A DNA stretch of 64,000 bases from an uncultured Planctomycetota bacterium (GTDB taxonomy: Bacteria; Planctomycetota; Planctomycetia; Gemmatales; Gemmataceae): assembly GCA_963849325.1 (NCBI GenBank), contig CAWKHF010000005.1:576001-640000 (forward strand). The letters are read 5' to 3'. Shown one piece after another: positions 790 to 63,900 of this stretch. The notes below the pieces were generated by a model. The model was not told the DNA's origin. It was given only the letters and a program-made list of their open reading frames with translations, and did not search any database. Each line of letters begins with the position of its first letter. The first letter of the stretch is position 1. Both the position numbers and the translations under genes were made by a program.

Positions 790-949
790 GACGACGGAAC
801 CCTCGCGCGGTACACGAGATTGACAGCGGGGCCGGTCTTTGACTATTCTCCCCGTTTTCGCCGGGCGGACAACCTCGGGCACATGAATTGCTCCACATCG
901 GAAGCGTCTTGGACCGATAAGGAATTGTTTGCCGGGAGGATCCTCCGTC

Positions 950-3900
950 ATGGCCGAAACTTCCAAGAACGAAATGACGACCCAGCTTGCCGAGGGTCTC
1001 TCCGTCAGCCGAACTGCGAACGGCAATGGGCTGACGTTGACCATCCGCCTTCAGGGTCCATCCGATTGCGTACTGCACTGGGGTTTGAGCCGGCGTCCCG
1101 GCGGGGCGTGGAATCGCCCTCCCCAGTCGTGCTGGCCGCAAGGGACGACGCCCGCCGACGGTAACGCCGTGCGTACCCCATTCGCTGGCGATGGTCAGAA
1201 AGAGGTGTCCATCCACCTCGATTCATCCGGCCCGTGGCGCGGCCTGGCCTTTGTCGTCCACGCCCCGAAAGAAAATCGCTGGATCAAGAGCGGCAATACG
1301 GACTTCGTCCTGCCGCTGCCCCGTCCGCGGGGCCGCTCGCCCGAAGAAGCGTTGACTGAGTGGGCGCCGGAAGGAACGGGGACGCGCCAGGTCCATTCGC
1401 TCGACAACGGTGATCGCGTCGCGGCGGCTATCGCCGAGACGCCCGACGGCGTGCGCGTCCGCCTGGTTTGCGACGCCGCGGCGCCGCTGGCCTTGCACTG
1501 GGGCTTGGCGTGGCAGTTCCAGCAGGAATGGACGCTGCCGCCGGAGAATTACCGGCCGGAAGGCACGACGCTCGCCGACGACAAGGCCGCGCGCACGCCG
1601 TTCACCGAGCGCGAGGGGTTGCAATACCTGGAGCTGCGCTTCCCCCGACCGTCCGAGGGACCGGGGCCGCGCGGCCTGCGCCTCGTTCTGCATCAGGCCG
1701 ACGAGGGCTGGCTCAAGAGCGACGGCAAAGACCTGTACTTGCCGCTTGTTCCAGGGCGAGCCGGACGCGCGACTGTCCGCGCCGAAGCTGAGCGAGTTGG
1801 CCGAGCAGATCGTCGGCGCCGAGAAGGGTGCCGGTTCGTGGACCCTGATGCACCGCTTCAACCTATGCCACGATCTGCTGGGGTCGGTACAGGATGACGA
1901 GGAGGGGCTGGCGCTGCTGTTCGCCTGGCTGCGCTACAGCGCCATCCGCCAACTCGATTGGCAGCGGCGCTACAACACCAAGCCGCGCGAGCTGAGTCAC
2001 GCCCAGGATCGACTGACGATACGGTTGGCCGGCGTCTGGCGCCGGAACCCGCCGGAGTCTCCGCAGTCGCTTCTGGGTGCGGCAAATGCTCACGACACTC
2101 GGCCGCGGCGGCGAGGGGCAGCGCGTGCGCGATGAGATCCTGCACATCATGCACCGCAATCATCTCAAGGAAACGGCCGGCAACTTCATCGAGGAATGGC
2201 ACCAAAAGCTGCACAACAACACCACGCCCGACGACGTCGTCATCTGCCAGGCTTACCTCGCCTTCCTCCGTAGCAACGGCGACGCCGGCACGTTCTACCG
2301 CACCCTGGAGCAGGGCGGCGTCACGCGCGCAGCGGCTGCAAGGCTTCGAGCGCCCCATCCGCTCCGAGCCGATCCTCTACGGCGACCGCAAGGATGCGCT
2401 GATCGGCGAATTCGAGAACTTCCTGAAAATCCTCAAGTCGGTGCATTCGGGCACGGACCTGGACAGCGCCGTCGCCGCGGCGCGCGGCCGACTCGACGGC
2501 GGCATGAACCGGCAACTCGATGGCCTGCTCGGCCCTGCGCGGGAAGGGTCCGGTCGTGGATGCGCTGGCCGGTACCGTCACGGCGGCGCGCGAAGGTCTG
2601 GCGAAGGCGCTGGCCGCCATCGGCGACGACGCCGGCCGCCGCGACCTGCTCTTCCTCGATCTGGCGCTGGAGGAATACCTGCGTGCGGCGATCGAACGGC
2701 AGAACGTCAGCCAGCTCCGCCGCGATGCGTTGGCGGCGCTGGTGCGGCGCGGCCCTGCGAAACCTCCAGCTCACGGCCGATTCCGCGGAGCTGGCCATCT
2801 GCGCCGGACACTGGGCGGCGCTGTTGGCTCGACCGCGCGACGGCCGCGACTGGGCGCTGCATGCCCGCAGCGTGACCGATCGCGTTTCGCGCTGGGTCGC
2901 AGGACTTCACCGGCGCCATCTATCGGCGCCTGCAACCCAAGGCCGAGGCGCTGGGCGCCGCCTTCGGCGCCGAGAAGTGGACGGTGCCGTTGTTCAGCGA
3001 GGAGGTCATCCGCGGCGGGCCGGCCTTCACCCTTTCGCTGCTCTTGCGTCCGCTCGACCGTCTTCTGCGCGAGGCGGCGGGACTGGGCGGCTGGCAGGTC
3101 ATCAGTCCCGCTCGCGCCACCGGCAAAGTCCGCGCGGTCAGTCGCCTCCACGATGTGCAGGCGGAGCGCTTCGCGGAGCCGACCGTGCTGGTCGCCGACC
3201 AGGTGAGCGGCGACGAGGAGATGCCCGAGGGCGTCACGGCGGTCCTCACCTCCGATTCGCCGGACCTGGTGTCGCACGTGGCCGTCCGCGCCCGCAACGC
3301 CGGCGTTCTCTTCGCCACCTGCTTCGACGCCGACGAATACCAGAACGTCTCAGGCGCTGGCGGGCCAATTCCTCAGCCTGCGCGTGACGCCGGGCGGCGA
3401 CGTGCAATATACGGAATCGTCCAAGTCCGTAGGGTGGGCCGAGTCTTCGAGGCCCACCGAGGAGCGTGGTGGGCCTCGTTCCTCGGCCCACCCTACGAAG
3501 ACCACGAAGGCCACCGCGTCCTTCCACGGATGGGTAGTTGGACAGGACCAGTTCGCCCCCGGCCTCGTTGGCGGCAAGTCGAACAACCTCAACGGCCTGC
3601 GCGGCCGACTGCCCGACTGGATCCGTCTGCCGAAATCCATCGCCCTGCCCTTCGGCGTCTTCGACCGCGTGCTGGCGGACGCGGCCAATCGTCGTCTGCG
3701 CGAGGAATGCAAAACCCTGATCGCGGCGGCCGAGACGAAGGGGACCGAAGCGTTGGCCGAACTGCGAGCCAAGCTGCATGGATTGACGGCGCCGACGGAA
3801 TTGCCAGCGGCGCTTCGGGAGGGCTGGCAGCGCGCCGGCCTGCCGCCGGTGCCGTGGGAGCAGACCTGGCACGCCATCCGCCGCGTCTGGGCGTCCAAGT

Positions 3901-4495
3901 GGAACGATCGCGCCTACCTGTCGCGCCGCGCTCGCGGTGTCCCGCACGACAGCCTGCAAATGGCCGTGCTTATTCAGCAAGTGGTGCCGGCCGATTATGC
4001 CTTCGTCATCCACACGGTCAATCCGCTCACCGGCAACCACGGCGAGATCTTCGCCGAGGTCGTTCTGGGCATGGGCGAGACGCTGGTCGGCAATTATCCC
4101 GGCCGGGCGCTCGGCTTCGTCTGCCGCAAGACCGACCTCAAGCCCGAGATACTCTCCTATCCCGGCAAGAGCGTGGGCCTTTACGGCAAGGGCGTGATCT
4201 TCCGCTCCGACTCCAACGGCGAGGACTTGGAGGGCTTTGCCGGCGCGGGACTTTATGATAGCTTCCTGGCCGAGGAGCCGGAGCATCGCGCTGCTCGACT
4301 ACCGCAACGAGAAGCTGGTCTGGGACGCGAAAGGTCCGCGACGACCTGCTCCGCTCGATCGCTCGGGCCGGGCTGGAAGTCGAACGTCTGCTCGGCTCGG
4401 CCCAGGACATCGAAGGAGCGATCGCCGGCGGCGAGCTGCACGTCGTCCAGACCCGTCCGCAAGTGGGACTGGACGACGACTCTCTCGCCGCGTAA
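950..4495 (+). CDS. Alpha-glucan, water dikinase (plant GWD1/R1-like) with two N-terminal CBM45-like domains; multiple frameshifts
   Basis: Stitched frames give LHWG..W..PP..P.GT x2, LMHRFNL, WLRYSAIRQLDWQRRYNTKPRELSHAQDRLT, GRGGEGQRVRDEIL, EEWHQKLHNNTTPDDVVICQA, PDLVSHVAVRARN, VGGKSNNL, WASKWNDRAY, FRSDSNGEDLEGFAGAGLYDS, QDIEG..VVQTRPQV; RBS GGGAGGA before ATG 950; TAA 4493-4495. Confidence 0.92.
3428..3497. repeat. GTAG-type REP-like nested palindrome lying in-frame inside the dikinase gene
   Basis: cgtagggtgggccgag ... ctcggcccaccctacg perfect inverted repeat with inner gaggcccacc/ggtgggcctc stem. Confidence 0.85.
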
Positions 4496-4497
4496 AC

Positions 4498-4561
4498 GTT
4501 TAGCCGCGACGCGCAGCGGAGCGCGGCGAGCGCCGCGCTCCGCTGCGCGTCGCGGCTAAAC
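4498..4561. repeat. Palindromic REP-like element, family A (GTTTAGCCGCGACGCGCAGCGGAGCGCG)
   Basis: Long inverted repeat; near-identical copies at 31256 and 37538. Confidence 0.9.
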
Positions 4562-4576
4562 CAGAAAGGATTCATC

Positions 4577-5457
4577 GTGACCCCGCGCATCCGCATCGGC
4601 AATCAGACGGCCATTTCGTGCGCCGACCCCTGACGCCTTTCCGCTTCGCCCTGCGACAACGGCTTCGACGCCTTCGAGTGGTTCGCCGACAAGAAGGTAC
4701 ATGCCGACGGCCGTAGCACCGGCTGGGACGAGCCGGACATGGACGCGGCCACGCGCCTCGCCATCCGCGACGCCGGCGTGGCCCATGACGTGCTCTTCAC
4801 CGTCCACGCCCCCTGGCAGGCCAACCCACTGCACGGCGACGGCATCCCCCTCCTGATCCGCAGCATCGATTTCGCCCGCGACATCGGTGCCGACCTGGTC
4901 AACCTGCACCTGTACATGGAGGAGGGGCCGGACGGTTACGCGCGGCGCTGGCGCCGGTGCTGCGGCATGCCGCCGAAGCGGGGCTGCGCGTCAGCATCGA
5001 GAACACGCCGCACACGACGCCGGACGACTTCAACGAAACTTTCGCCCGTCTCGCCCAGCTGGACGCCGTCCCGTCCGGGACGGTCGGCATGTGCCTGGAC
5101 ATCGGCCACGCCAACCTCTGCGCCGCCACCCGCAACAACTTCGTGCGCTACCTCGACGCCCTGGCGCCCGCGGTGCCCATCATCCACGTCCACGCCCACG
5201 AGAACCACGGCGATGCTGACAGCCACCTGACGCTGTTCACCGGCCCCTCGAAGGACGATGACGCCGGCGTGCGCGCGTTCCTGGATCGCCTGCGCCGCCG
5301 CCATTACCGCGGTGCCGTGATCCTGGAGCAGTGGCCCGACCCGCCGCAACTCCTCGTCGAAGCCGCCACCCGACTGCGCAGCCTCCTCGGCCTGCGTCCT
5401 CTCGCCGCGCCGGATGGCGCGACGACGGAGAAAAGCACGTCCCGGCGAGGCGCCTGA
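4577..5457 (+). CDS. Sugar phosphate isomerase/epimerase / AP endonuclease family 2 TIM-barrel protein; frameshifted
   Basis: GTG after GAAAGGA; IRIGNQT, GFDAFEWF, TVHAPW, NLHL, SIENT, CLDIGHA, HVHAHENHGDADSH, ILEQW metal-binding motifs. Confidence 0.8.
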
Positions 5458-5993
5458 ACGGGTGATGGGTCGCTCGTTGCCACGCTCGGCATGGGAGCGA
5501 GCGACAGCTCAAATTTGCACATCGCTTGTTCAAAAAAGACGGACACCGGGGACTTCGGTCTCCGCTTATCCCTCTTTCCAGGCCGGCAGCCGTTGCCTGC
5601 GCGATTTTTTTCTCATGCTCTTTCGCTCTTCTTCCGATTGTTTTTTGGGGATCGCGCAAGAAAAGAGAGGAGGAGAAAGCGCACGGCGCGAGAAGGTAGG
5701 AGAACAAGAACAGGTGTGAGAGGGTGCCGGCGATTTTCTTCACCAAAAATCACGGATTCACTCTCGCCCGCCCTCGGTTCATCGGCGAAAGTTCCCTTGT
5801 CCCAATTGGCGCGCCGCTTGCTCTACCACTCCTGTCGGCTTCCAGCCCCCGGTTGGAGGCACTTGGGCTGTGGAGACGGCGCCTCATCGACGGAAAGGCT
5901 CGGAGGGAGCGAGCCTTGCTGAGGCTACCGAAGAAGGTTGGAACGCGGCGGCTCGGAGGGGCCGCGTCCACCACGTCGAGGGCGGACAGAGAT

Positions 5994-7277
5994 ATGCAAC
6001 AAGACATCAAGGTTCCGTGGGTAGCAGTCGTCTCGTTTCCTCCGGGGCAAACGCCCGCCGAGGGGAAACACTATATCGGTAACGGGCGCGACATTCTCCT
6101 GGAGGGTTTCCACTGGGAGTCCCACCAGGGCGGCGCGTCCGATCCTGCAACGGGCATGCGCAAAAGTTGGTATCGCGTTCTCGTGGAGAACGCGGCAGCT
6201 GTCAAGGCGGCCGGTTTCACCTGGGTGTGGTTCCCGCCGCCGTCCGATTCATTGGCGCCGCAGGGATATATCCCACGGCGTTGGAACGTCCTGGATACGG
6301 CTTATGGCAGCGAGGCCGAACTGCGGGCGGCCATCCACGCGCTGGAACCGGTGCGGGCGATGGCCGACGTGGTCATCAATCACCGCGTCGGCGTCCACAC
6401 CAGCGGCGCCGACTTTGACGATCCGCCATTTCCCAATAACCGAGCGGCCATTGCCCGCGATGATTCTTCCGGCGTCGGCACCGGCAATCCCGACTCCGGC
6501 GAACACCATGCCGCCGGCCGCGATCTCGACCATACCAACCCCGATGTCCGCCACGCCATCACGGACTACTTGCGCAAGCTCAAAGCGATCGGCTTCCAGG
6601 GTTGGCGCTACGACCTGACCAAGGGCTACGCCGGCCGTTTCATCGCCGAGTACAACGACACCACCGAGCCGGGCTTCTCCGTCGGCGAATTCTACGACGG
6701 CGATCGGCAGAAGGTGACAAGTTGGATCGACGCCACCGGCGGCAAGACGACGGCGTTCGATTTCCCCACGCGCTATCTGCTGTATGAGGCGTGCCTGAGC
6801 GACGATTACGGCCGGCTCCGTTCGCACAACAGCGGCCGAGTGGTTCCCGGCGGTTTGCTCGGCCTGTGGCCGAGCCGTTCGGTGACTTTTCTGGATAATC
6901 ACGATACGGAAAGTCGCCGCGATTACGAACATAGCTGTCACAACGACGGCACGCGGCACTTTCCCGGCGAGACGGTCGGCATGGGTTACGCCTACCTGCT
7001 GACGCATCCCGGTACGCCGTGCGTCTTCTGGCCGCACTTCTTCGATTGGGGCCAACCGACGCGGCAGCGAATCGAGCGCCTGATCCACCTGCGACGGCAC
7101 TGCGGCATTCATTCGCGCAGCCACGTGGACATCAAGGAGGCCGGCCACGGATTGTACGCGGCGATCATCGACGGCAAGGTGGCGATGAAGCTCGGTCGTC
7201 GTGGCTGGTCGCCCGGCGGCGGCTGGCACCTCGCCGTCGACGGCGACAAGTTCGCCGTGTGGATGCGATCCAACTAA
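5994..7277 (+). CDS. Alpha-amylase, GH13, plant-type (GH13_6-like), no signal peptide
   Basis: ILLEGFHWES, GFTWVWFPPP, PQGYIP, DVVINHR, GWRYDLTKGY, VGEFY, FLDNHDT, YLLTHPGTPCVF, YAAIIDGKVAMKLG. Confidence 0.92.
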   Translation: MQQDIKVPWVAVVSFPPGQTPAEGKHYIGNGRDILLEGFHWESHQGGASDPATGMRKSWYRVLVENAAAVKAAGFTWVWFPPPSDSLAPQGYIPRRWNVLDTAYGSEAELRAAIHALEPVRAMADVVINHRVGVHTSGADFDDPPFPNNRAAIARDDSSGVGTGNPDSGEHHAAGRDLDHTNPDVRHAITDYLRKLKAIGFQGWRYDLTKGYAGRFIAEYNDTTEPGFSVGEFYDGDRQKVTSWIDATGGKTTAFDFPTRYLLYEACLSDDYGRLRSHNSGRVVPGGLLGLWPSRSVTFLDNHDTESRRDYEHSCHNDGTRHFPGETVGMGYAYLLTHPGTPCVFWPHFFDWGQPTRQRIERLIHLRRHCGIHSRSHVDIKEAGHGLYAAIIDGKVAMKLGRRGWSPGGGWHLAVDGDKFAVWMRSN

Positions 7278-49825: not shown

Positions 49826-50041
49826 CTATCGCGCGGCTCCGTCACTCGCGGACAAGGCAAATTCGATCGCGTGAGGCGCCTTGACCTGTTTGGAGGCATC
49901 CAGCAGTTCGATGGAAACGAGTCGGCCGGCTTTGTCGTAATCGAGGATGAAGCCGGGATCCGACTCGTCGCTTTCGGCCACCTTGCCAGGGCGCAGGATG
50001 ATCGAGAGCGTGTCGGTTTCTTTGTCGTAGATGATTTTCAC
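49826..50041 (-). CDS. DUF2283 domain protein (putative antitoxin)
   Basis: KIIYDKETDTLSI, ILDYDKAGRLVSIELLDAS. Confidence 0.9.
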   Translation of the reverse strand: MKIIYDKETDTLSIILRPGKVAESDESDPGFILDYDKAGRLVSIELLDASKQVKAPHAIEFALSASDGAAR

Positions 50042-50148
50042 GGCGTTCTCCCGTACTTGGCGACGCTGCTGGTTTAGGTGCGGCTCGTCGGAGTGCTTCC
50101 TCTTGATCCACTTGAAGCCTTCGTACTTCGTAATGGCGGCCGATTCTC

Positions 50149-50387
50149 TTATGCTTCCCGATAAGGCGCAAGAAATCGTGGCGAGAGATGTTGGCCTGCG
50201 TGCAGATGGCTCGCAGCGTCGAGCCTTTGAGCCGCCGGTGATTCGGCATGGTCAAGGGCGTCTGGGTGCCATCGGCATTGTCTCGTACCATCGAGATGTG
50301 CTCCTGCTCGCGGACCAACCGGAAGCCCAGGCTTTCGAGCGCCTTCACCACGCGCTGCTTGGGAGCATCTCGGGGAAATTTCGCCAT
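50149..50387 (-). CDS. hicA: HicA family toxin; one frameshift near the C-terminus
   Basis: VVKALESLGF..VRE.EH..M, MPNH..LKGSTLRAI; alternate frame ends YREA*. Confidence 0.85.
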
Positions 50388-50653
50388 TACATCGTCACCT
50401 CCGCCTCGGCGACGAACGCCTCCAGCACGGGTGATTCGACGTCCAGCACCTGCTTTCCAAAGGTCTCGATGTGGAAGCGAATGGCGGATTTCACGTCGGC
50501 CATCGCTTGCTCATAGCTGTCGCCTTCGCCAACCACCACGCTCTTCAGTCCCAGCGGATAAGCCACATAGCCATCCGCGTGCTTCTCGACAATGATCTTG
50601 ACCGCCTCCACCGGCGTCCGCTTGTCTCGCTTATTGGATTTGCGTTTGTTCAT
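50387..50653 (-). CDS. hicB: HicB family antitoxin (short form)
   Basis: IIVEKHADGYVAYP...GEGDSYEQAMADVKSAI. Confidence 0.85.
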   Translation of the reverse strand: MNKRKSNKRDKRTPVEAVKIIVEKHADGYVAYPLGLKSVVVGEGDSYEQAMADVKSAIRFHIETFGKQVLDVESPVLEAFVAEAEVTM

Positions 50654-50751
50654 GCGATTTCCTCCACAATCCAAAAACCCTCAGCCGTTAGCCCGTACAG
50701 ATTGTACACCAGCGGGTCAATCAGGTGGTCGGCGGCGTTGATTTGGCGCCT
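50650..50751 (-). pseudogene. Displaced 3' end of a Type IIG restriction-modification gene
   Basis: Translates RRQINAADHLIDPLVYNLYGLTAEGFWIVEEIA*; stop overlaps the hicB ATG. Confidence 0.75.
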
Positions 50752-50802
50752 GTCGCTTTTACATATTCTGATATTTTACTATTCAGGTGTACTGTACAGG
50801 CG

Positions 50803-50831
50803 TTGACTTATTAGAAGGCCAAAGGTAGAAT
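50803..50831 (+). promoter_or_regulatory. Near-consensus sigma70 promoter upstream of the cyclase-effector pair
   Basis: TTGACT-N17-TAGAAT. Confidence 0.65.
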
Positions 50832-51072
50832 CAACACATGAGTTTCTGGTTGGAGGCTGGAACGATGTTGGGGTTCTTCATTCAACGCAACAGGTTTATC
50901 GAGGGCGGTTCAACCTGAGTTGGCGCGAGCGAATCGAGCAGGAACTCCGCGCATACTTCGACCCGACCTGTGGCAAGCAGTAATCATCGAACCCCCCGAC
51001 GCTGAAGCGAGTGGGGGCGTCGTTTTTTCTGGATAAGTCCCTGGCCTTTTCCGACCCAGAAAGAGTTCGCCG

Positions 51073-51855
51073 ATGCCCATCGCCTTGATTGCTGATCTCC
51101 TTAACTTCGCACAGAATTGCCTTAACGAGGCGGAGAAAGCTGCCAAGGCAATTCACCTTTCCACCTTCCGCGAGTCGGTAGATACTGTGAAAAACTACCG
51201 GGCGCGCCTGCTCGCCGATGAACCCGGCTACTCGGAAGTCAAGACTTTCCGGGGAATGCGTGCATGGGGTGCACTGCTTGCGTTCGACTTGCGCAAGTCC
51301 AGTGCGCGGGCATTGGAGTTGGGACCGCGAGATACGTACCTGACAATGCATACATACTTGCCTACGATGCTGTCTCTCATCAGTAGCGCGGGCGGAATCG
51401 TGGTGGGGTTGCGGGGAGATGGTGCGATCACCTGCTTCGGGCTAGTTGACCAGTCCGAGGGAGAACCAAAGGTAAGCAGCGAACAGGCAGCCAAGGCCGT
51501 GCGGCAAGCATGTCGGTGCGGTGACGCGATGGTTAAGGCCATCGATCTGGTGGTGAACAAGGTGCTCGTGGCGGCTGATATTCGCGGCGGCTTACAACTC
51601 GGTGTTGGCATTGATGTAGGTAATATTGTCGCCACCAACATTGGACTAGGGAGTGCCAGTGAACTCACTGCATATGGAGATTGCGTCAACAAATGCTGCA
51701 AGCGCAGCTGCGCAAATAACGGCGTCATCCTGACGCTCGCCGCCAAACGAATGTTCCCAAAATCAGAAGGAGGAAAAACCGCATTCCACCGCTACAAGGA
51801 CGAATCCGATGCTTTTTTGCTCCGTTATCCGACCACTTACAAAACGCTTGGTTAA
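51073..51855 (+). CDS. Class III nucleotide cyclase, Pycsar PycC-like
   Basis: AFDLRKSS, LRGDG, GVGIDVG, GDCVNKCCK; adjacent to a PycTM-like gene; lower GC. Confidence 0.8.
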   Translation: MPIALIADLLNFAQNCLNEAEKAAKAIHLSTFRESVDTVKNYRARLLADEPGYSEVKTFRGMRAWGALLAFDLRKSSARALELGPRDTYLTMHTYLPTMLSLISSAGGIVVGLRGDGAITCFGLVDQSEGEPKVSSEQAAKAVRQACRCGDAMVKAIDLVVNKVLVAADIRGGLQLGVGIDVGNIVATNIGLGSASELTAYGDCVNKCCKRSCANNGVILTLAAKRMFPKSEGGKTAFHRYKDESDAFLLRYPTTYKTLG

Positions 51856-51892
51856 GCTTTAGCATTTAGCAGTCCTATTTTGGAGAGCACAG

Positions 51893-52429
51893 ATGAGTAA
51901 CGCCGTGGCTGAGCCGAACCTTCAGGCGCACCAACTCGACTTCGCCTGGAAAACTCACGAATATATCAATAACTACATTCGTTTTGCCGATACAAAGGCT
52001 GCGCTCATTATCGCCTGGAGTTCTGCGATTCTGGGCACACTTTACGTTGGCCGTCTCCATGAGGCGGTTATGCAGAGCCACTTCACGTTTAAAGGTATTT
52101 CCTGGGCAACAACGCTAGCGACGCTGGCGTTCCCTCTCTTGGGCGTATCGTTTCTCGCCGCAGCATGGTCAATCATCCCTCGCCTTCCGACGAAACAATT
52201 GAGCGGGTTGGTTTTCTGGGAAAGTATTCTGGTGCATGCGAGTGGCGATTTGTATGCAAACGAGCTCGGGAGGAATGACACTAACCAACTCACCCGTCAT
52301 CTCTGCCTTCAGATCCACACAGTCGCTGCCGTGGCTCGGAAAAAGTATTTGTGTATTACACTCAGCATGTGGATCGCTTTATCCGGGACGATCCTCGGCA
52401 TTCTCTCGATCCTGATCAAAGCTGCCTGA
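51893..52429 (+). CDS. Pycsar transmembrane effector (PycTM / DUF5706-like)
   Basis: INNYIRFADTKA, three hydrophobic helices, IIPRL, LVFWESI, VARKKY. Confidence 0.88.
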   Translation: MSNAVAEPNLQAHQLDFAWKTHEYINNYIRFADTKAALIIAWSSAILGTLYVGRLHEAVMQSHFTFKGISWATTLATLAFPLLGVSFLAAAWSIIPRLPTKQLSGLVFWESILVHASGDLYANELGRNDTNQLTRHLCLQIHTVAAVARKKYLCITLSMWIALSGTILGILSILIKAA

Positions 52430-55700: not shown

Positions 55701-56126
55701 TCAGTCGGCTTTCTTCTGACGTTTCGCTTCCCAGTCGAACGATCGGCTTTGATCGCCCCGGCCGATCTCCACTTTGCCCTTGATGGTGTCGCCTTTCTGC
55801 TCGCCCTTGTACTTCATGGTGAACTTCTGCCCGCCCTGCTCACGCGTGACCTGGAACGATACCTTGCCGTCCTTGACCTTGCCGTCCTCGATGTCGGTCT
55901 CTCGGCCGCCCGGCCCGGTCACGGTGCCGGTCAGCTTCTCGCCGTCCTGCTTGAGGTTGTAGGTGGACGTGATCGTCCGTCCGTTGCCGGTGGTGAAGCT
56001 CGACTTCCACGTTCCGGTCGCATTGGCCGCGGCCTTTTTCTCCTCCGCCCGCGCCCCGCCGGCCAGCAGGCAGCCTGCCAGGCCGAGCACCAGGACGCCG
56101 AACCCCATCCGTCTCTGTACGTTCAT
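55701..56126 (-). CDS. Secreted small beta-rich hypothetical protein
   Basis: Signal peptide; TGTWK, LKQDGEKLTG, WEAKR. Confidence 0.75.
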   Translation of the reverse strand: MNVQRRMGFGVLVLGLAGCLLAGGARAEEKKAAANATGTWKSSFTTGNGRTITSTYNLKQDGEKLTGTVTGPGGRETDIEDGKVKDGKVSFQVTREQGGQKFTMKYKGEQKGDTIKGKVEIGRGDQSRSFDWEAKRQKKAD

Positions 56127-56250
56127 GACTCACTTCCTTCCTTCGCTTTTTCACGAGTGATCCGGCCTTCTCACCACGCCCTGATTGCACTCGTTCGACA
56201 GTTCGCGGTCAAGGAAAAAGCCCGCAACTTTCGCCTCGGCATCTGGAAAA

Positions 56251-56316
56251 AACGTCGGAGCCGGCAGCGTCAGCGAGGGTTGACTTTCCCTTGCTGACGC
56301 TGCCGGCTCCGACGTT
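56251..56316. repeat. Palindromic REP-like element related to 26087
   Basis: aacgtcggagccggcagcgtcagc ... gctgacgctgccggctccgacgtt. Confidence 0.85.
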
Positions 56317-56337
56317 GGCCCGATTGGGCGAGACGAG

Positions 56338-56967
56338 TCACTCTTCCCGCATGGACTGGTTGAGGATGTCCACCAGTTCCTTGCTGATGTCGATGCCGGC
56401 GACGGAGTAAATCGGCGTCAACGGTCCGCATTGCAGCTTGCGGGCGATGTTCATCGGGCTGTTCCTCTCTTCCGGGGTGACGTGCTCATTGTAGTGCAGG
56501 ACCAATTCGAGGTCGTGGGCCACGGCGTAGCGCTGCGTCGCGTCGGTCACGTCCAGGTACAGCGTCTTCATGGCTTCCTCGGTCTTTTTGCCGACGGTCT
56601 TCTTGGCCTTGACCTGGTTGTCCTCCATCTCGCGCTGCAACGTCTTCAGCTTCTCCTCGGCGTCCTCCGACTTCGCCGGTATCAGGTCGGTGCCTGCCGC
56701 GATGCCCCTGCTCAGCTTTTCGGCCTGGATGCGTAGGTTCTTCTCGCGCTCCTGAAAGGGCCGCATCGCCGTCTTCATCTCTTCCTGATAATGGATGTAC
56801 TTCTGGTAGTGCTTGATAACGTAGGTCAGGTTGACGAGGGCAAGCCGCGTGCGCGGGGCGGCCGGCGAGGCCAGCTTGTGCTTTTCGCCCTCCGCTAGCA
56901 ACCGACCGGCGCCGACCACCACGGCCAAGGCCACGATGAGGCTTCCTACCCACAACAAGGCTCTCAT
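56338..56967 (-). CDS. OmpH/Skp family periplasmic chaperone
   Basis: Signal, LALVNL..V, coiled coil, LELVL, IDIS.E. Confidence 0.8.
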   Translation of the reverse strand: MRALLWVGSLIVALAVVVGAGRLLAEGEKHKLASPAAPRTRLALVNLTYVIKHYQKYIHYQEEMKTAMRPFQEREKNLRIQAEKLSRGIAAGTDLIPAKSEDAEEKLKTLQREMEDNQVKAKKTVGKKTEEAMKTLYLDVTDATQRYAVAHDLELVLHYNEHVTPEERNSPMNIARKLQCGPLTPIYSVAGIDISKELVDILNQSMREE

Positions 56968-57080
56968 GGTCCTTCTCCTTGGAACAGAGCATCCGCCGAC
57001 GTCAACTCCTTCGACACCCGGGGGTCCGGCGGAAGGGCGGAGTCTACCCGTTTTGCGAGGACAGCGTCAACGCGACGTTC

Positions 57081-57169
57081 CGAAATTAGGGAATAGGGAA
57101 TAGGGAATAGGGACGAGGCTTCTTCTCTCTTCCCTATTCCCTATTCCCTATTCCCTATTCCCTATTTCG
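57081..57169. repeat. Heptamer tandem inverted repeat (TAGGGAA)n/(TTCCCTA)n
   Basis: 4 and 5 units on the two arms. Confidence 0.85.
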
Positions 57170-57171
57170 AG

Positions 57172-57429
57172 TTACCAACTGCCGAGGACTTCCAGGGTGA
57201 GCTGGCCAAGGCTCTGCTCCGAAACGGACACGGCCTCGCCGCAGTCGGTGCAGCGGATCGTGCCGCAGGCGAACAGGGTCGAAAAGATCATATCTTCAAA
57301 CGTCTCTCCATCGCCCAGGGCGTACCAGGGGCCACCCTCGGCCATGCGATCCAGGACGTCGGCGGCCGGCGTCTCGGGCGAGGCCGCGAACGAGCACGAG
57401 CAGCGAGGGCAGTAGAGTTCGACTTGCAT
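57172..57429 (-). CDS. Small zinc-binding hypothetical protein
   Basis: CPRC...GDGETFEDMI...CTDC; GGAG RBS. Confidence 0.7.
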   Translation of the reverse strand: MQVELYCPRCSCSFAASPETPAADVLDRMAEGGPWYALGDGETFEDMIFSTLFACGTIRCTDCGEAVSVSEQSLGQLTLEVLGSW

Positions 57430-57764
57430 GACTCTTCTCCGGAACGGCGTGAGAGTTGTTTCGACGCCGTGAACAATTGCAAGTCGGATACCAAATCCTT
57501 TTTCTGTCAAGACGATTTTTCGGACTCACACGGACGTCCTTGCGAGCATTGATCTTAGGGTTGAAACGTCGTCCGCTTTCTGCGAGGAGCGGCAAACAGA
57601 AGCCCAGCGATGCGCAACTCTTTTACAACTTGGCAGGGAGGAAACTACAAACGGCTTCTCCGAATGGCTGCCGGGCTTGCTTCGCCGCTTCGTTTCGGGG
57701 ATTCTGGGGTGATACGAGAGACTTTACCGTTTGTATCGAGAATGCCTTGGAAAGCAGGAAGATC

Positions 57765-59843
57765 GTGCCCGAGCCGAACCCTCTGAGCGTCAGCCTGGAA
57801 ACTCTGCCGGGCATCTCCCCCGCCCGGCTGGAACGGCTCGACCGGCTCGGCCTGCGAACCGTCGGAGACCTGTTCTTTCATTTCCCACGGACTTACGAGG
57901 ATCTCAACGACGTGCGGCCCATCGCGGCGCTGTCGGAAGGGAGCATCCAGACGGTGCAGGGCGAGGTCGTGGAGATCGACGGCCGTTCGCTGAGCGATGG
58001 CCGAACGGTCGTGAGCGTCGTGCTCAGCGACGACGGCAAAAGCTGCCTGGAAGGAGTGTGGTTCAACCAGGCGTTCGCGGCGCGGCGCTTTCGCTACGGT
58101 CAACGCCTGTCCTTCAGCGGCAAGCCGAAGTGGTATCGCGATCACTGGCAGATGAGCAGCCCGCGCGTCCAGGTCCTCGACGGAGACGGCGGCGAAGGAA
58201 CCGGGCGTCGTGCCGGTCTATCCGCTCACGGAAGACCTGCGTCCCGAGCACCTGCGGCCGCTGATCGGCCGGGCCATCGACCTGTACGCCGCCGCAGTCG
58301 CCGACGTGTTGCCGGCCGCCCTGCGGCGCCGGCACGATTGGCCGGCGTTCGAGCCGGCCCTGCGCGACATCCACTTCCCGCCGTCGCTGGCGACGGCGAC
58401 GCGCGGACGGCGCCGCTTCGTCTACGAGGAGTTCCTCATTCTTCAGCTGGCGCTGGCCGTGCGTCGCCGCGAGGTCCGCGACGAGGGGCGAGCGCCGATG
58501 CTCGCCGTCACAGCCGCCATCGACGAGCGCATTCGCCGTTTATTTCCCTTCCGGCTGACCGCCGACCAGGACCGCGCCGTCGCCGAAATCTGCCGCGACC
58601 TGGCCGCGCGAAAGGCCGATGCAGCGGCTGTTGCAGGCCGACGTCGGCGCGGGCAAGACGGCCGTCGCCGTCTACGCCCTGCTGGTGGCGGTGGCCAACA
58701 AGCATCAGGCCGCCCTCATGGCCCCGACCGAGGTGCTGGCCCGCCAGCACGCCCGCACACTCGATCGCTACCTCGCCCACAGCCGCGTCCGCCGGCTGCT
58801 GCTGACCGGCGGCGCTGACGCCGGCCGAGCGGCGCGACGCCCTGGCCGCGCTGGCCGCCGGCGACATCGATCTCGTGGTCGGCACGCAGGCGCTGGTACA
58901 GGAGGACGTGCAGTTCGCCCGGCTGGGGCTGGTGGTCATCGACGAGCAGCACAAGTTCGGCGTCCATCAGCGGGCCCGCTTCCGCCGGCTGGGCGTCGAT
59001 CCGCATTACCTGGTGATGACGGCCACGCCGATCCCGCGCACGGTTGCCCTGACCGTCTTCGGCGATCTCGACGTGTCGCTCATCCGCGAGTTGCCGCCGG
59101 GCCGGCAGCCGGTGGCGACGCGCTGGGAGCCGGCCGGTCAGCGCGAGCGCGTCTATGCCCGGCTGCGCGAGGGGCTGCAACGCGGCCGGCAGGGTTACGT
59201 CGTCTGTCCGCTGGTCGAGGAGTCGGCCACGCTCGACGTGAAGGCGGCGACACAGACGCACGCGGAATTGCAGGCGGGACCGTTCCGCGATTTCCGCCTC
59301 GGTCTGCTGCACGGCCGGCAGGACGAGGAGACCAAGGCGGAGGTGATGGAGCGCTTCCGCAAGCACGAACTGGACCTGCTGGTGTGTACCTCGGTCATCG
59401 AGGTCGGCGTGGACGTGCCGAACGCAACGCTGCTGGTGATCGAGCATGCGGAGCGTTTCGGCCTGTCGCAGCTGCATCAACTGCGCGGCCGGGTCAGTCG
59501 TGGTCCGATGGCGGGACAATGCTACCTGTTCGCTGAGCCGCCCGGCGATGAGGGGCGGCAGCGTCTGCGCGCGTTTTTGCGGACGACCGACGGCTTCGCG
59601 CTGGCCGAGGAGGACATGCGGCTGCGCGGCGCCGGCGAGTTCTTCGGCACCCGACAGCACGGTCTCGGCGAGTTGCGCTTTGGCGACCTGGTACGCGATG
59701 CCGACCTGTTGACGCTTGCCCGTAAGGATGCTTTCGCTCTTGTCACGGACGATCCGCGCCTACAGCGGCCCGAACACGCCTTGCTCCGCGCCGCTGTTCT
59801 GGAACGCTACGGAAAGACGCTCGATCTGGCGGAGATCGGCTAG
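57765..59843 (+). CDS. recG: ATP-dependent DNA helicase RecG; frameshifted
   Basis: [68 protein letters not shown]. Confidence 0.95.
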
Positions 59844-59903: not shown

Positions 59904-60329
59904 ATGCCTGTGCTTTATCATGGTACAAGTCGAGCGTTTGCAAATGCGATGGCGGGTACCTCCGCCGGAGGAGGTATGGATGTAACACGGGGCAGGGGAG
60001 AGTTTGGGCGTGGTTTCTATACGCAAAGCTCCAGCGGCAACGCCGCTCGCCGTGCGCAGGCTCTCTACGGCAACAACAGCGCCGTGCTGGTCTTGACCAT
60101 AGACGATCAGGCATATCATGCCTTGACTTTTCGGCGTTTGACGCTGAACATGGCACAGGCGTTAAATGCTCAACTCAGGGGTAGCAATACACAGCATATT
60201 TTTACGACAGTGCACGATGCCTTGGTCGGTCCACTCGTGTATCAGCCGCGAATTGAGCAGCAGAAATTCCAAACGGTGAATGCACAGGTCCTATTAAATG
60301 GACCGCTGACTCAGCGGATGGTGAAGTAA
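59904..60329 (+). CDS. DUF3990-like putative ADP-ribosyltransferase-fold protein
   Basis: LYHGTS, GEFGRGFYT, DALVGP, QQKF; lower GC. Confidence 0.65.
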   Translation: MPVLYHGTSRAFANAMAGTSAGGGMDVTRGRGEFGRGFYTQSSSGNAARRAQALYGNNSAVLVLTIDDQAYHALTFRRLTLNMAQALNAQLRGSNTQHIFTTVHDALVGPLVYQPRIEQQKFQTVNAQVLLNGPLTQRMVK

Positions 60330-60350
60330 AACCGGATTGGAGGGAAGCCA

Positions 60351-60815
60351 ATGGCGTTTGTACATAGCCTGGTGAAGACGAAGCGGAATGGAAAGACCGG
60401 ATGGTGCGCGCCGGTTGAGCTGGGTGACGACGCACCGCATTACATCAGTTTTGTCATTCCCGTGGACGATAAGGGGGATTTCTTCCACGAATATATCTGT
60501 GAGACGATCACAGCGGAGGAAGAGGACAAGAGGATTGAGTCTCATACGTTAGTGCGGCAAGGGAAAGATTCGTTCCTATTGCCTCTTGGTGAGCTTGAGC
60601 TGTGGTTCACTGTCCGCCCCGTCCCAAGAGAGGAGCGTCGTTTGCCTTACATTGGGAAGCCGCAACACGACGACTTCTCCTTCCTATTCACTGAAATCGA
60701 GCCACAAGAGCCAGACAGGCTCGATAGGCTTTACGAGGAGGAGAACACTTTTATAATCGGCTGTGAACCTTTTACCCATTACTCGGGCATTACCAGGTTG
60801 GCGAAAAAGCGGTAA
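60351..60815 (+). CDS. Acidic hypothetical protein
   Basis: GGAGG RBS, clean ORF, lower GC, directly after the DUF3990-like gene. Confidence 0.65.
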   Translation: MAFVHSLVKTKRNGKTGWCAPVELGDDAPHYISFVIPVDDKGDFFHEYICETITAEEEDKRIESHTLVRQGKDSFLLPLGELELWFTVRPVPREERRLPYIGKPQHDDFSFLFTEIEPQEPDRLDRLYEEENTFIIGCEPFTHYSGITRLAKKR

Positions 60816-60911
60816 TATTGGTAATGCAAGGCGAAGGACTGTTTCGCTCGAAGCGAGTCGTGGTCGGAAGCGCGGCCGGCCGTGCTTGACCGATCTTGCG
60901 AGCCTTCCTGG

Positions 60912-63900
60912 CTATTGGCGCGAGCCGTTGTGGGCGTCCGCGTGGCCCGACGCCACCAGGCCGCCGTTGGAGCTGACGGCCACAACGTCAACGACATGGC
61001 CATTGAGTCGGGACGGCAGCGAATCGGCCGCTTTCTTCAGACGCAGATCGTTGAACCACTGAATGACGTAGTAGAACACCGGCGTCAGAAAGATGCCGAA
61101 CAGCGTCACGCCCAACATCCCGGCGAATACGGCCGTGCCCAGCAGGCGCCGCATCTCGGCCCCCGCCCCCTCGGCGATCACCAGCGGTACGACGCCGAGG
61201 ATGAAGGCGAACGACGTCATGATGATCGGCCGCAGACGCAGCTTGCACGCCGCCAGCGTCGAGTGGAAGCGATCGTTGCCGGACTCGCGCTGCGCCTTGG
61301 CGAACTCGACGATGAGGATGGCGTTCTTGCACGCCAGGCCGATCAGCACCACGAAGCCGACCTGCGTGAAGATGTTGATGTCCATGTGCGCCAGCAGTAC
61401 GCCGGCAACCGAACACAGCAGACACATCGGCACGACGAGAATGACGGCCAACGGCAGCGACGTGCTCTCGTACTGGGCGGCCAGCACCAAAAACACCAGC
61501 ACCACCGCCAGCAGAAACACCCACATGGCCGTGTTGCCCGTCTGCAACTGCAACAGGGCCAGCTCCGTCCATTCGTAGCGCATGGCTCGCGGCAGGTCTT
61601 TTTTGGCGACGTCCTCCATCAACTCGATGGCCTGGCCGGAGCTGATGCCGCCTGCCGGCGTGCCATTGATGGCAGCGGACGGATACATGTTGTAACGCAT
61701 GATGAGCACCGGGCCGTTCTCCTGACGCACCTTGAGCAGGGCGGCCAGCGGCACCATGCGGCCGTAGACGTTGGGGACCTTGATTTGCTTGAGGTCGTTG
61801 ATCTGCGTGCGGTAGTCGGCGGCGGCCTGCACGTTCACCTGCCAGGTGCGGCCGAAACGGTTGAAGTCGTTGACGTACAGCGAGCCGAGGTAAATCTGCA
61901 AGGTGTTGAAGACCTCGCTCATGGGGACGCCGTGCGTCTTGGCCTGGGTGCGGTCGATGTCCAGGTACAGCCAGGGCGTATTGGCCCGGAAGCTGGTGTA
62001 CAGGCCTTGCAGTCCCGGCGTGTCCTCGCCATTTTGAATCGTCTTCTCGGCGACGTTTTGCAGCGATTCCAGGCCGGTGTCGCCGCGATCCTCGACGATG
62101 ATCTTGAAGCCGCCGGCCGTGCCCAGGCCGTCGATGGGCGGAGCGCCGAAGACGTTGATCTGGGCGTCCGGGATTTTGTCTTGCAGCACCGTCTGCAAGC
62201 GGGCCGCGATGGCGTCGCCGCTCAGGTCATCCGTCGTCCGCTCGTGGAAGTCCTTGAGCATGACGTACATGGCGCCGAAGTTCGGCGCGTTGGCGTTGAG
62301 AAGGATCGATTGGCCGGCGATGGCGACGGTGTGCTTGACGCCGGGATCGTCCTTGGCGATGTCCTCGATCTGCCGCACCACGTCCTGCGTGCGTTGCGCC
62401 GACGATGAATCGGGCAGTTGGACGTTGACCAGCAAGTAGCCCTTGTCCTGCACGGGAATGAAGCCCTTGGGCGTGCGGATGAAGCCCACGTAGGTCAGGC
62501 CGAGCAGTCCGCCGTAAACCAGGAGCACGATGACGCTGACACGCAGCAACATGCCGACCATGCGCGTGTAGACGTTGGTGGCGACGTCGAACCCCTTGTT
62601 GAAGGCGCGGAACGACCAGCCAAGAATGCGGTTGAGCGGCCCGCCGACGATCCAGCCGGCAACCGCGCCGCCCAGGGCCATCACGCCCACGGCGATTTCC
62701 AGCGATAGCGGCCGCAGAGAAGCCGCATACGGCGCCGGCAGACGTTCCATTCCCTGTCCCAGCCAGTAGTCCAACCACGGCGCCAGATACCAGCCACCGA
62801 CCGCGGCGCCGGCGAGGGCGAAGGCCACGCGCGGCAGCGGCGGCGTGACGCTGCCCTTGGTGCGCGGCCGCAACAGCAGGGCCGTCAACGCCGGGCTGAG
62901 GGTCAGCGAGTTGAACGCGGAGATGAGCGTCGAAACGGCGATGGTCAGGGCGAACTGGCGATAAAACTGTCCGGTGATGCCGCTGATGAAGGCGCACGGC
63001 ACGAAGACGGCGCTGAGCACCAGGCCGACGGCGATGACTGGCCCGGACACCTGCTCCATCGCCTTGATCGTCGCCTCCTTCGGCGCCAGGCCATGTTCGA
63101 TGTGATGCTCCACCGCTTCCACCACCACAATGGCGTCATCAACGACGATGCCGATGGCCAGCACCAGGCCGAACAGCGTGAGGGTATTCAGACTGAAACC
63201 GATGGCGATCATCACGGCGAAGGTGCCGATGATGGCGACGGGTACGGCGACGAGCGGGATGACGGCCGAACGCCAATTCTGCAAAAACAACAGCACCACG
63301 ACGGCGACGAGGATGATGGCGTCGCGCAGCGTGTTGAACACCTCCCGGATCGATTCTTCAATGAACGGCGTGGTGTCGTAGACAATGTCGTAATCGAGTC
63401 CCTCGGGAAAGTTCACCTTCAGCTCCGCCATTTTCTTTTTGACTTCGTTGGACACGTCCAGGGCGTTGGAGCCGGGCAACTGATAGATCGATAATGCCAC
63501 CGACGGCTTGCCGTTGAGCGTGCAGGTCTGATCGTAGCCGAGGGCGCCCAGCTCGATGTCGGCCACGTCGCGCAGGCGCACCAACCGGCCGTCGCCATTG
63601 TCCCGGAGGATGATGTCGGCGAACTGATCGGGATTCATCAGCCGGCCCATCGTGCTCATGGTGTACTGGAAGACCTGGCCGCGCGACACCGGCGGTTGAC
63701 CGATCTGTCCGGCCGCCACCTGCGTGTTCTGCTCCATGATGGCCTGCGTCACCACCGACGCCGACAGGTTGCGCGACGCCATCCGCGACGGGTCGAGCCA
63801 CACGCGCATACTGTAATCGCGCTGACCGAGATAGGAAATGTCGCCAACGCCCGGCAGACGCGACAGCTCGTCCTTGAGCTGGATGGTGGCGTAGTTGCTC

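Follow-up and report, generated by a model that had tools for sequence, protein, structure and literature searches.

A 64-kb stretch of DNA (the window; G000:C5:576001–640000, G000 being the assembly from which it comes) carries at 950–7277, on the + strand and in a single orientation, three genes that encode an alpha-glucan, water dikinase (GWD) of the GWD1 type, a TIM-barrel protein and a plant-type alpha-amylase. Taken as a whole, we read them, with moderate confidence, as a cassette for mobilising intracellular alpha-glucan in a planctomycete of the Gemmataceae. The strongest signal, which was missed by the original prediction made from the same DNA, is that bacterial GWD has in the TIM barrel a partner conserved across phyla. 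The contribution of the window itself is a Gemmataceae variant of this arrangement, in which GWD and TIM barrel are accompanied by a plant-type amylase and there is no second dikinase. The three co-oriented genes are present just as originally described and their coordinates are exact, the start codon of the dikinase lying at 950 and the stop codon of the amylase ending at 7277.

The dikinase and its partners in bacteria

By every sequence criterion tested, the dikinase is a five-domain enzyme of the GWD1 type. Two stretches of the Ig_N_CWD1/CBM45 family (PF23166, E = 2.9e-41) lie on the open reading frame (ORF) at 929–1897, PF01326 (PPDK_N) is found on the ORF fragments of the dikinase (E = 1.1e-24), and a profile search of the genome places PF22973 at G000:C5:579089–579358 (E = 6e-35). 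Residues 291–717 of the orthologue in the assembly G009 match the crystallised central domain of potato GWD1 (PDB 9ha9 and 9qvi) with E = 4.3e-86, and the window copy spans the equivalent residues, as judged from tblastn pieces. The codon of the catalytic histidine is counted at about 3275–3277, within the motif DLVSHVAVRARN; in an alignment (A1) of 19 bacterial full-length forms this histidine (H783), a glutamate 20 residues N-terminal to it and the HWG...W motifs of both CBM45 modules are invariant (19/19 for the histidine and the glutamate). Identity to cotton GWD1 is 43% over approximately 1000 residues. The same domain order (CBM45, CBM45, central domain, histidine domain with H992 and E971, ATP-binding domain) is given for the potato enzyme in the available part of the 2026 StGWD1 structure paper (PMC13553574), in which a word search found no occurrence of bacteria. 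No C-terminal domain binding phosphoenolpyruvate (PEP) or pyruvate is among the Pfam hits, and the NCBIfam hits end at the ATP-grasp part. Identity as a PEP synthase or rifampicin phosphotransferase was considered and rejected, such proteins matching only about 80 ATP-grasp residues, far under the NCBIfam cut-offs; the contrast between their E value of about 1e-10 and that of the potato central domain bears out the original naming of the gene as GWD.

When the N-terminus of the dikinase is inspected by eye, with no predictor run, no export signal is apparent, and a cytoplasmic role in glucan phosphorylation would seem to be the best reading. It is conceivable that the acceptor is not the cell's own storage alpha-glucan but imported starch, a small molecule or a polymer of some other kind, given that activity in the bacterial members is predicted from sequence and that pyruvate, rifampicin and prodigiosin precursors are substrates elsewhere in the dikinase superfamily. 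We consider this very unlikely, in view of the CBM45 pair and of a central domain strongly similar to that of plant GWD1, of neighbours that recur across phyla (glycogen synthase, branching enzyme, GH77, GH57 and GH13), and of the need for ATP in a protein with no export signal seen at its N-terminus.

A relative of GWD is encoded in 301 of 342 candidate stretches from a collection holding one genome per species, and these represent at least eight named phyla. Counts of loci given here refer to the best 80 of these 301, all of which come from metagenome-assembled genomes (MAGs) and none from an isolate. They are labelled as Planctomycetota (Gemmataceae, Isosphaeraceae, Scalindua, Anammoxibacter), Pseudomonadota (Chromatiales, Thiotrichales), Verrucomicrobiota, Nitrospirota, Thermodesulfobacteriota, Myxococcota, Acidobacteriota, Nitrospinota and Deferribacterota. 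A search of 90% clusters gave 2324 proteins at E ≤ 1e-10 among 8000 scored candidates; the best 120 of the 2324 all carry the GWD-specific PF23166 and PF22973, and their source names, where there are any, are either alpha-glucan, water dikinase (JGI) or generic (NCBI). A representative library contains 608 proteins at E ≤ 1e-30. Nearer to the window, PF22973 occurs in 11 of 61 relatives of the window genome, namely G000 itself, eight of the ten remaining genomes of its genus and two single genomes that represent two more genera within the family; a search of 24 genomes from outside the family gave no case.

By tblastn of three orthologous proteins, 60 of the 80 loci have the TIM barrel directly 3' of the dikinase; the amylase is found in only six, all of Gemmataceae type. 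Of the 61 relatives, all 11 that have the dikinase also encode the TIM protein, as do three of the 50 that lack it, and the counts for the amylase are identical. Other neighbours that recur in the 80 loci are GH13 enzymes (22), GT5 glycogen synthase (17) and GH57 with DUF3536 (11), followed by GT4 (10), GH77 (10), a second GH57 (9) and GlgB (7). We therefore take the GWD–TIM pair to be an old bacterial module that sits beside glycogen genes in many phyla, and the amylase to be a Gemmataceae-specific addition to it. The window genome has candidates for glycogen synthase, a GH77 protein, a GT4 enzyme and three branching enzymes. Four of the relatives (G006, G019, G023 and G058) give no PF22973 hit and encode at least one of the TIM protein and the amylase; the TIM relatives in G023 and G058 are at only 47–48% identity, and in G006 the TIM and amylase genes adjoin on contig C188, where the dikinase may lie past the contig end.

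In 22 of the 80 loci there is, further along, a second GWD-like dikinase, and in 20 of those 22 (L029, L034, L036, L037, L043, L046–L048, L059, L063, L066, L069, L072, L079, L082, L085, L086, L088, L089 and L092) this second enzyme begins with the TIM barrel, fused to it where the CBM45 modules would otherwise be. The fused proteins are approximately 1150–1290 residues long, with an open frame of 1511 residues in L092, and are often followed by an ORF of about 350 residues that belongs to no Pfam family. The nearest named cluster for the second dikinase in the Atlas is of Streptophyta, with CBM20 on 12% of its members (score 0.96); from this one Atlas lead, the second bacterial dikinase may be PWD-like, that is, a counterpart of plant PWD. 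No second dikinase was found in G000 by the genome profile search, which returned a single PF22973 hit; G014 keeps one 3' of its TIM gene.

In the available portions of PMC6260743 and of a 2026 preprint, GWD is treated as a hallmark of semicrystalline starch in eukaryotes that arose with the plastid-bearing lineages. The same portions of the preprint describe a perfect correlation between GWD and semicrystalline glucan in eukaryotes, and, among prokaryotes, credit only a few cyanobacteria, clostridia and some Verrucomicrobia with making granules of starch or a starch-like glucan. A 2018 paper, so far as its accessible text goes, includes bacterial sequences within its GWD tree, and the accessible part of PMC6426938 already covers bacterial amylases of the plant type as well as the transfer of genes between bacteria and plants. 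Given this literature, the 301 stretches with GWD relatives and the naming already in use at JGI, the original prediction overrated the novelty of the locus.

The TIM barrel, the amylase and a possible glucan cycle

The TIM-barrel gene matches AP_endonuc_2 (PF01261) with E = 3.3e-16. Its homology by tblastn extends over 4577–5406 in two frames and its open frame ends at 5457; the motifs VHAP, NLH, IENT, DIGH, HVHAHEN, DADSH and LEQ are all readable across these two frames. H77, H111, E142, D175, H178, H204, H206, H208, E209, D213, D215, H217 and E251 are invariant in 35 of 35 TIM sequences. An AlphaFold2 model built on the same number of sequences (mean pLDDT 90, pTM 0.87) was compared with the PDB by Foldseek, which ranks MJ1311 first and then the AP endonuclease of African swine fever virus (ASFV), a relative of endonuclease IV (entries 3wqo, and 6khy/6ki3). 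In a profile search the order is MJ1311 (3e-16), endonuclease IV of Mycobacterium tuberculosis (3.4e-6), the ASFV AP endonuclease (1.6e-3), endonuclease IV of E. coli (0.01) and UlaE (0.012). H109, D179 and H182 of the E. coli enzyme (1qtw) align to invariant TIM residues, its last glutamate being beyond the aligned range, and in the profile alignment the M. tuberculosis enzyme likewise has its HAP, ENT, DxxH and DxH motifs opposite invariant TIM residues. We assume that these aligned histidine, aspartate and glutamate residues of endonuclease IV are the ligands of its three-metal site.

The best NCBIfam model for the TIM protein is the CbiR phosphodiesterase (NF041277). The available part of PMC7733943 places CbiR in the AP endonuclease 2 superfamily, as an enzyme that hydrolyses phosphoesters and depends on metal. 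Identity as CbiR proper was rejected; the score is 47.6 bits against a cut-off of 105, and the neighbours are glucan genes and not cobamide genes. An Atlas look-up of the protein returned only bacterial PF01261 clusters.

Because putative metal ligands of the endonuclease IV type are conserved, the closest curated model is that of CbiR, and the gene is linked, and in some loci fused, to dikinases, we infer that the TIM barrel may be a metal phosphoesterase acting on phosphoglucan, and thus the phosphate-removing partner of GWD. Alternatively, it could be an isomerase or epimerase of sugars or sugar phosphates, or some other metal enzyme that works on a product of the pathway, in which case dephosphorylation would take place elsewhere or not at all. 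After the two leading matches Foldseek next ranks UlaE, together with numerous ketose 3-epimerases (E values around 1e-9 to 1e-10), with bacterial endonuclease IV behind the epimerases at 20–22% identity, so that the modelled fold alone would leave phosphoesterase and epimerase undecided. UlaE is also present in the profile search, and where the best 120 matches of a homologue search are named at all, they are 'sugar phosphate isomerase/epimerase' of Gemmataceae or Planctomycetes. On the other side, the endonuclease IV enzymes rank above the epimerases in the profile search, about ten of the invariant histidine, aspartate and glutamate residues align with presumed endonuclease IV ligands, epimerases of the TIM fold being known to use only four, and the closest curated model is of a phosphodiesterase. 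We regard the isomerase or epimerase assignment as a possibility that deserves to be taken seriously, though not one that we would expect to prevail.

The amylase occupies a single intact frame (5994–7274 plus the stop codon) with PF00128 and Alpha-amyl_C2 (PF07821, E = 6.3e-19). Among solved structures barley AMY2 comes closest (1amy; E = 1.3e-75, residues 34–424 against 2–401), an end-to-end match that agrees with the plant-type character originally claimed for it; the rice enzyme 3wn6 also matches end to end (E = 2.7e-74). With the orthologue in G009 as the query, the next kind of enzyme, the maltotetraohydrolases, reaches only about 1e-32. The residues aligned to D179, E204 and D289 of 1amy, which are the catalytic residues of barley AMY2, are conserved. 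By eye, again with no predictor run, the 33-residue N-terminal extension has no charged-then-hydrophobic pattern of a signal peptide, and none of the three proteins appears to have a signal peptide when their N-termini are read and compared with barley AMY2. The position of the amylase gene varies; it lies 5' of the dikinase in a Gemmatales MAG (L026) and on a separate contig in G014.

The three proteins can be placed in a sequence of steps that suggests a possible bacterial version of the plant cycle of starch breakdown. The dikinase, whose family membership is established, would bind the storage alpha-glucan through its two CBM45 modules. Its histidine would be autophosphorylated with the beta-phosphate of ATP, and the phosphate would then pass to glucosyl residues. 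In plants, phosphorylation of glucosyl residues loosens ordered chains. The plant-type endo-amylase, for which both the family and the catalytic triad are evident, would cut the chains so exposed, and the TIM barrel, as a putative metal phosphoesterase whose ligands would match those of endonuclease IV, would strip off the glucan-bound phosphate.

Several observations weigh against this scheme. The TIM gene is not adjacent to the dikinase in 20 of the 80 loci; three of these run into the edge of a contig, and about 17 do have flanking sequence. A spacer of about 540 nucleotides, which is not conserved, separates the amylase from the TIM gene, so that their co-transcription is only a possibility, and the assignment to the cytoplasm depends only on the reading of N-termini. 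The literature search found no experimental study of any bacterial GWD, of this TIM family or of this amylase. To these must be added the sub-cut-off score of the TIM protein with the CbiR model, the epimerases among its structural matches, the public annotation of its homologues, and an excess of frame breaks in the dikinase gene, which is considered below.

Integrity and setting of the locus

The frameshifts mentioned in the original prediction are present in this assembly, as nine insertions in the GWD gene and one deletion in the TIM gene. By tblastn, an intact frame of 1216 residues from the same genus matches the window over 914–4492 in ten pieces, at 61–88% identity and in the successive frames 2, 3, 1, 2, 3, 1, 2, 3, 1 and 2. 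DNA alignment with six orthologues locates the single-nucleotide insertions at 1745, 2060, 2331, 2532, 2748, 2898, 3346, 4289 and 4330, none of them in a long homopolymer; the single-nucleotide deletion in the TIM gene is near 4943. If each break is read through as X, the dikinase has 1178 residues plus a stop codon, is free of internal stops and shares 80% identity with the intact G009 copy, the closest of its orthologues. It departs from the consensus at five of 469 sites where eight orthologues agree (1.07%; the range for the orthologues is 0.85–8.5%), and since this is as few as in the best-conserved orthologues there is no sign of relaxed constraint. The orthologous frames in seven other assemblies, most of them in hundreds of contigs, have 1185–1314 residues; in two sister assemblies with very few contigs the dikinase frames are shortened to 797 and 1099 residues.

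The ten breaks are most likely errors of assembly, and the genes are probably alive, because the orthologues are intact, constraint is not relaxed, and other genes of the assembly are frame-broken as well. A tally of the background gives about 18 frame changes in approximately 41 kb of compared genes in this assembly, nine in one direction and eight in the other. The nine breaks in 3.6 kb of the dikinase, all of them insertions, exceed this background of mixed direction, and the excess leaves room for a real pseudogene, that is, for decay in this strain of the GWD gene, and perhaps of the TIM gene, in a cassette that works in relatives. For such decay there are the density of the breaks (other genes in this assembly have roughly 0.4 per kb), their uniform nature as single-nucleotide insertions outside long homopolymers, and the unbroken state of the flanking MOSC, amylase and DUF2071 genes. 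We think it unlikely nonetheless; the read-through has no internal stop and only the five departures at sites invariant in orthologues, the PPDK gene of the same assembly (84.7% complete, in 14 contigs) is also split over three frames, and the two few-contig sister assemblies too give shortened GWD frames. Moreover, natural decay of a gene does not usually yield nine insertions and no deletion.

The assembly measures 8.16 Mb, with the completeness just given being that of marker genes. Many of its conserved genes are broken up over reading frames, as noted at C12:64091–64911, C8:88858–90382 and C12:378479–379607 and at 4943 of the window; the split PPDK gene is on contig 12, and the candidate glycogen synthase and GT4 genes fall into two tblastn pieces each. 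So few contigs at so incomplete a level fit a long-read assembly rich in insertions and deletions.

The names of the nearest proteins in the databases are those of bacteria of the Gemmataceae (phylum Planctomycetota). It might be argued that the region is a eukaryotic contaminant or a chimeric join, as the best characterised relatives of the dikinase and the amylase are in plants. This we consider extremely improbable, and contamination was rejected: the cassette recurs in eight of the ten other genomes of the genus, with all three genes together in same-genus assemblies, the G + C content of the first 8 kb (65–69%) is similar to that of the remaining window, the genes lack introns, stand close together and have bacterial genes on either side, and the window lies at 576–640 kb of its contig. 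The bacterial nature of the locus, as first proposed, is thus upheld.

The flanking genes, on the opposite strand, are a MOSC/YiiM gene and a DUF2071 gene, identified by Pfam on the ORFs of the window. A scan for promoter consensus sequences found two sites, against a mean of 0.7 in shuffled sequences, of which one is plausible (Table 1); a terminator scan of the window gave fewer sites than expected from shuffling, and no tRNA genes were found across the whole 64 kb. The TIM–amylase spacer keeps its length in same-genus loci and, in an alignment of five of them, is poorly conserved in sequence, with 0–30% invariant columns per 60-nucleotide block against 25–63% within the TIM gene. Far from the cassette, the G + C fraction falls to 0.55–0.60 at 50001–52000, 56001–58000 and 60001–62000, compared with about 0.65 elsewhere, and there are only short ORFs around 49.8–52.4 kb; the low-G + C stretches at 50–62 kb may be foreign or non-coding DNA.

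Table 1. Features of the cassette and its surroundings, in window coordinates.
Feature	Position	Strand	Basis
Promoter-like site (TTGACA, 18 nucleotides, TATTCT), about 100 nucleotides 5' of the GWD start	820..849	+	Consensus scan; pattern match only
Dikinase gene, GWD1-type alpha-glucan, water dikinase	950..4495	+	Pfam, tblastn, orthologue DNA alignment
First CBM45 / Ig_N_CWD1 module (second copy to about 1750)	998..1318	+	PF23166, residues 24–130 of ORF 929–1897
Central helical domain, homologue of the crystallised potato GWD1 central domain	1692..2966, approximate	+	Mapped via tblastn pieces
Phosphohistidine domain	3089..3358	+	PF22973 GWD1_pHisD, E = 1.2e-34
ATP-binding domain (PPDK_N / ATP-grasp)	3357..4495	+	PF01326; tblastn pieces covering residues 847–1216
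AP-endonuclease-2 (xylose-isomerase-like) TIM barrel	4577..5457	+	Pfam, tblastn, alignment, model, fold and profile searches
TIM–amylase spacer, about 540 nucleotides	5458..5993	+	DNA alignment of five same-genus orthologous loci
GH13_6-like plant-type alpha-amylase, 427 residues, intact	5994..7277	+	Pfam, barley AMY2 alignment

Evolutionary origin and relation to known systems

Trees of GWD were calculated by a quick IQ-TREE search (LG+G4; 77 rows and 1029 columns, aligned with a faster mode of MAFFT) and by FastTree (197 rows, rooted on the 22 second dikinases). In the FastTree tree, all 77 bacterial GWDs derived from the loci fall in one clade of 107 rows (support 99), below which the labelled eukaryotes form a grade. 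IQ-TREE recovers a main bacterial clade of 39 (SH-aLRT 97), with the bacterial clade sister to one of glaucophytes, red algae and alveolates (support 68). When the 27 eukaryote rows were constrained to form one clade, the log-likelihood was 20.9 above that of the free quick tree (p-AU 0.72); one sequence each of Auribacterota and Margulisiibacteriota and two unlabelled rows then branch before the split of the eukaryotes from the main bacteria, with internal branches of 0.03–0.07 in that part of the tree and the root on a branch of about 1.2. P0250 (Candidatus Auribacterota) and P0253 (Candidatus Margulisiibacteriota) are long-branched; neither belongs to the main bacterial clade, and both attach close to the base of the GWD tree. 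On the origin of eukaryotic GWD, on which the original prediction suggested that the locus could bear, the trees as they stand would be compatible with either bacteria or eukaryotes having had the enzyme first.

A bolder proposal is that GWD and the TIM barrel, together with the PWD-like dikinase where it occurs, constitute an ancient bacterial system of phosphorylation and dephosphorylation, that both starch dikinases of eukaryotes came from such an operon and bacteria did not acquire GWD from algae, that the endonuclease-IV-like TIM barrel represents a novel type of phosphatase acting on glucan, and that the carriers, including Gemmataceae, make a partly crystalline storage glucan which must be phosphorylated before it can be mobilised. 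We hold this combination to be doubtful and put it forward as speculation. The insoluble, starch-like storage glucan suggested in the original prediction gains no support from the present data. Even so, a conserved bacterial GWD with a candidate for a new phosphate-removing enzyme raises the question of whether bacteria phosphorylate their storage glucan, and beyond that whether some of them have ordered glucan and where the eukaryotic enzymes came from. The Gemmataceae form, as a compact set of three enzymes, could be reconstituted in vitro, and a new fold for a glucan phosphatase would, if true, be of interest to starch biotechnology.

The closest characterised counterpart of the dikinase is plant GWD1 (potato StGWD1/R1 and Arabidopsis SEX1; EC 2.7.9.4; PDB 9HA9 and 9QVI), with which it shares the order of the five domains, the catalytic histidine and the upstream glutamate. 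It differs in its length (approximately 1180 residues, compared with 1464), in lacking a transit peptide and in having a much shorter linker between the CBM45 modules; it is also bacterial, part of an operon-like cassette and known here from its sequence. For the TIM barrel, the functional parallels are SEX4 and LSF2, which in plants remove the phosphate added by GWD so that hydrolysis can proceed, and animal laforin, all of the dual-specificity phosphatase fold. The likeness lies in the proposed removal of phosphate before hydrolysis; the window protein is a metal TIM barrel, unrelated to them in fold and chemistry, and has no carbohydrate-binding module. In structure it resembles endonuclease IV, CbiR and MJ1311, all of PF01261, sharing the TIM-barrel fold and having histidine, aspartate and glutamate residues that align with presumed metal ligands of endonuclease IV, but its genetic context is glucan metabolism and not DNA repair or cobamide genes.

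The amylase is like barley AMY2 (1AMY) and the plant GH13_6 enzymes in aligning end to end with them, in keeping the Asp/Glu/Asp residues and in carrying a C-terminal PF07821 domain. In contrast to plant amylases it has the 33-residue N-terminal extension and no signal peptide that we could see, and unlike plastidial AMY3 it has no CBM45; its linkage to GWD is found in Gemmataceae only (the six loci noted above). Finally, the operons in which GWD, the TIM barrel and the second dikinase occur together (L029, L034, L063, L085 and others) have a GWD of the same clade and a TIM barrel of the same family directly 3' of it, and differ from the window in that the window genome is without the second dikinase and has gained the plant-type amylase instead.

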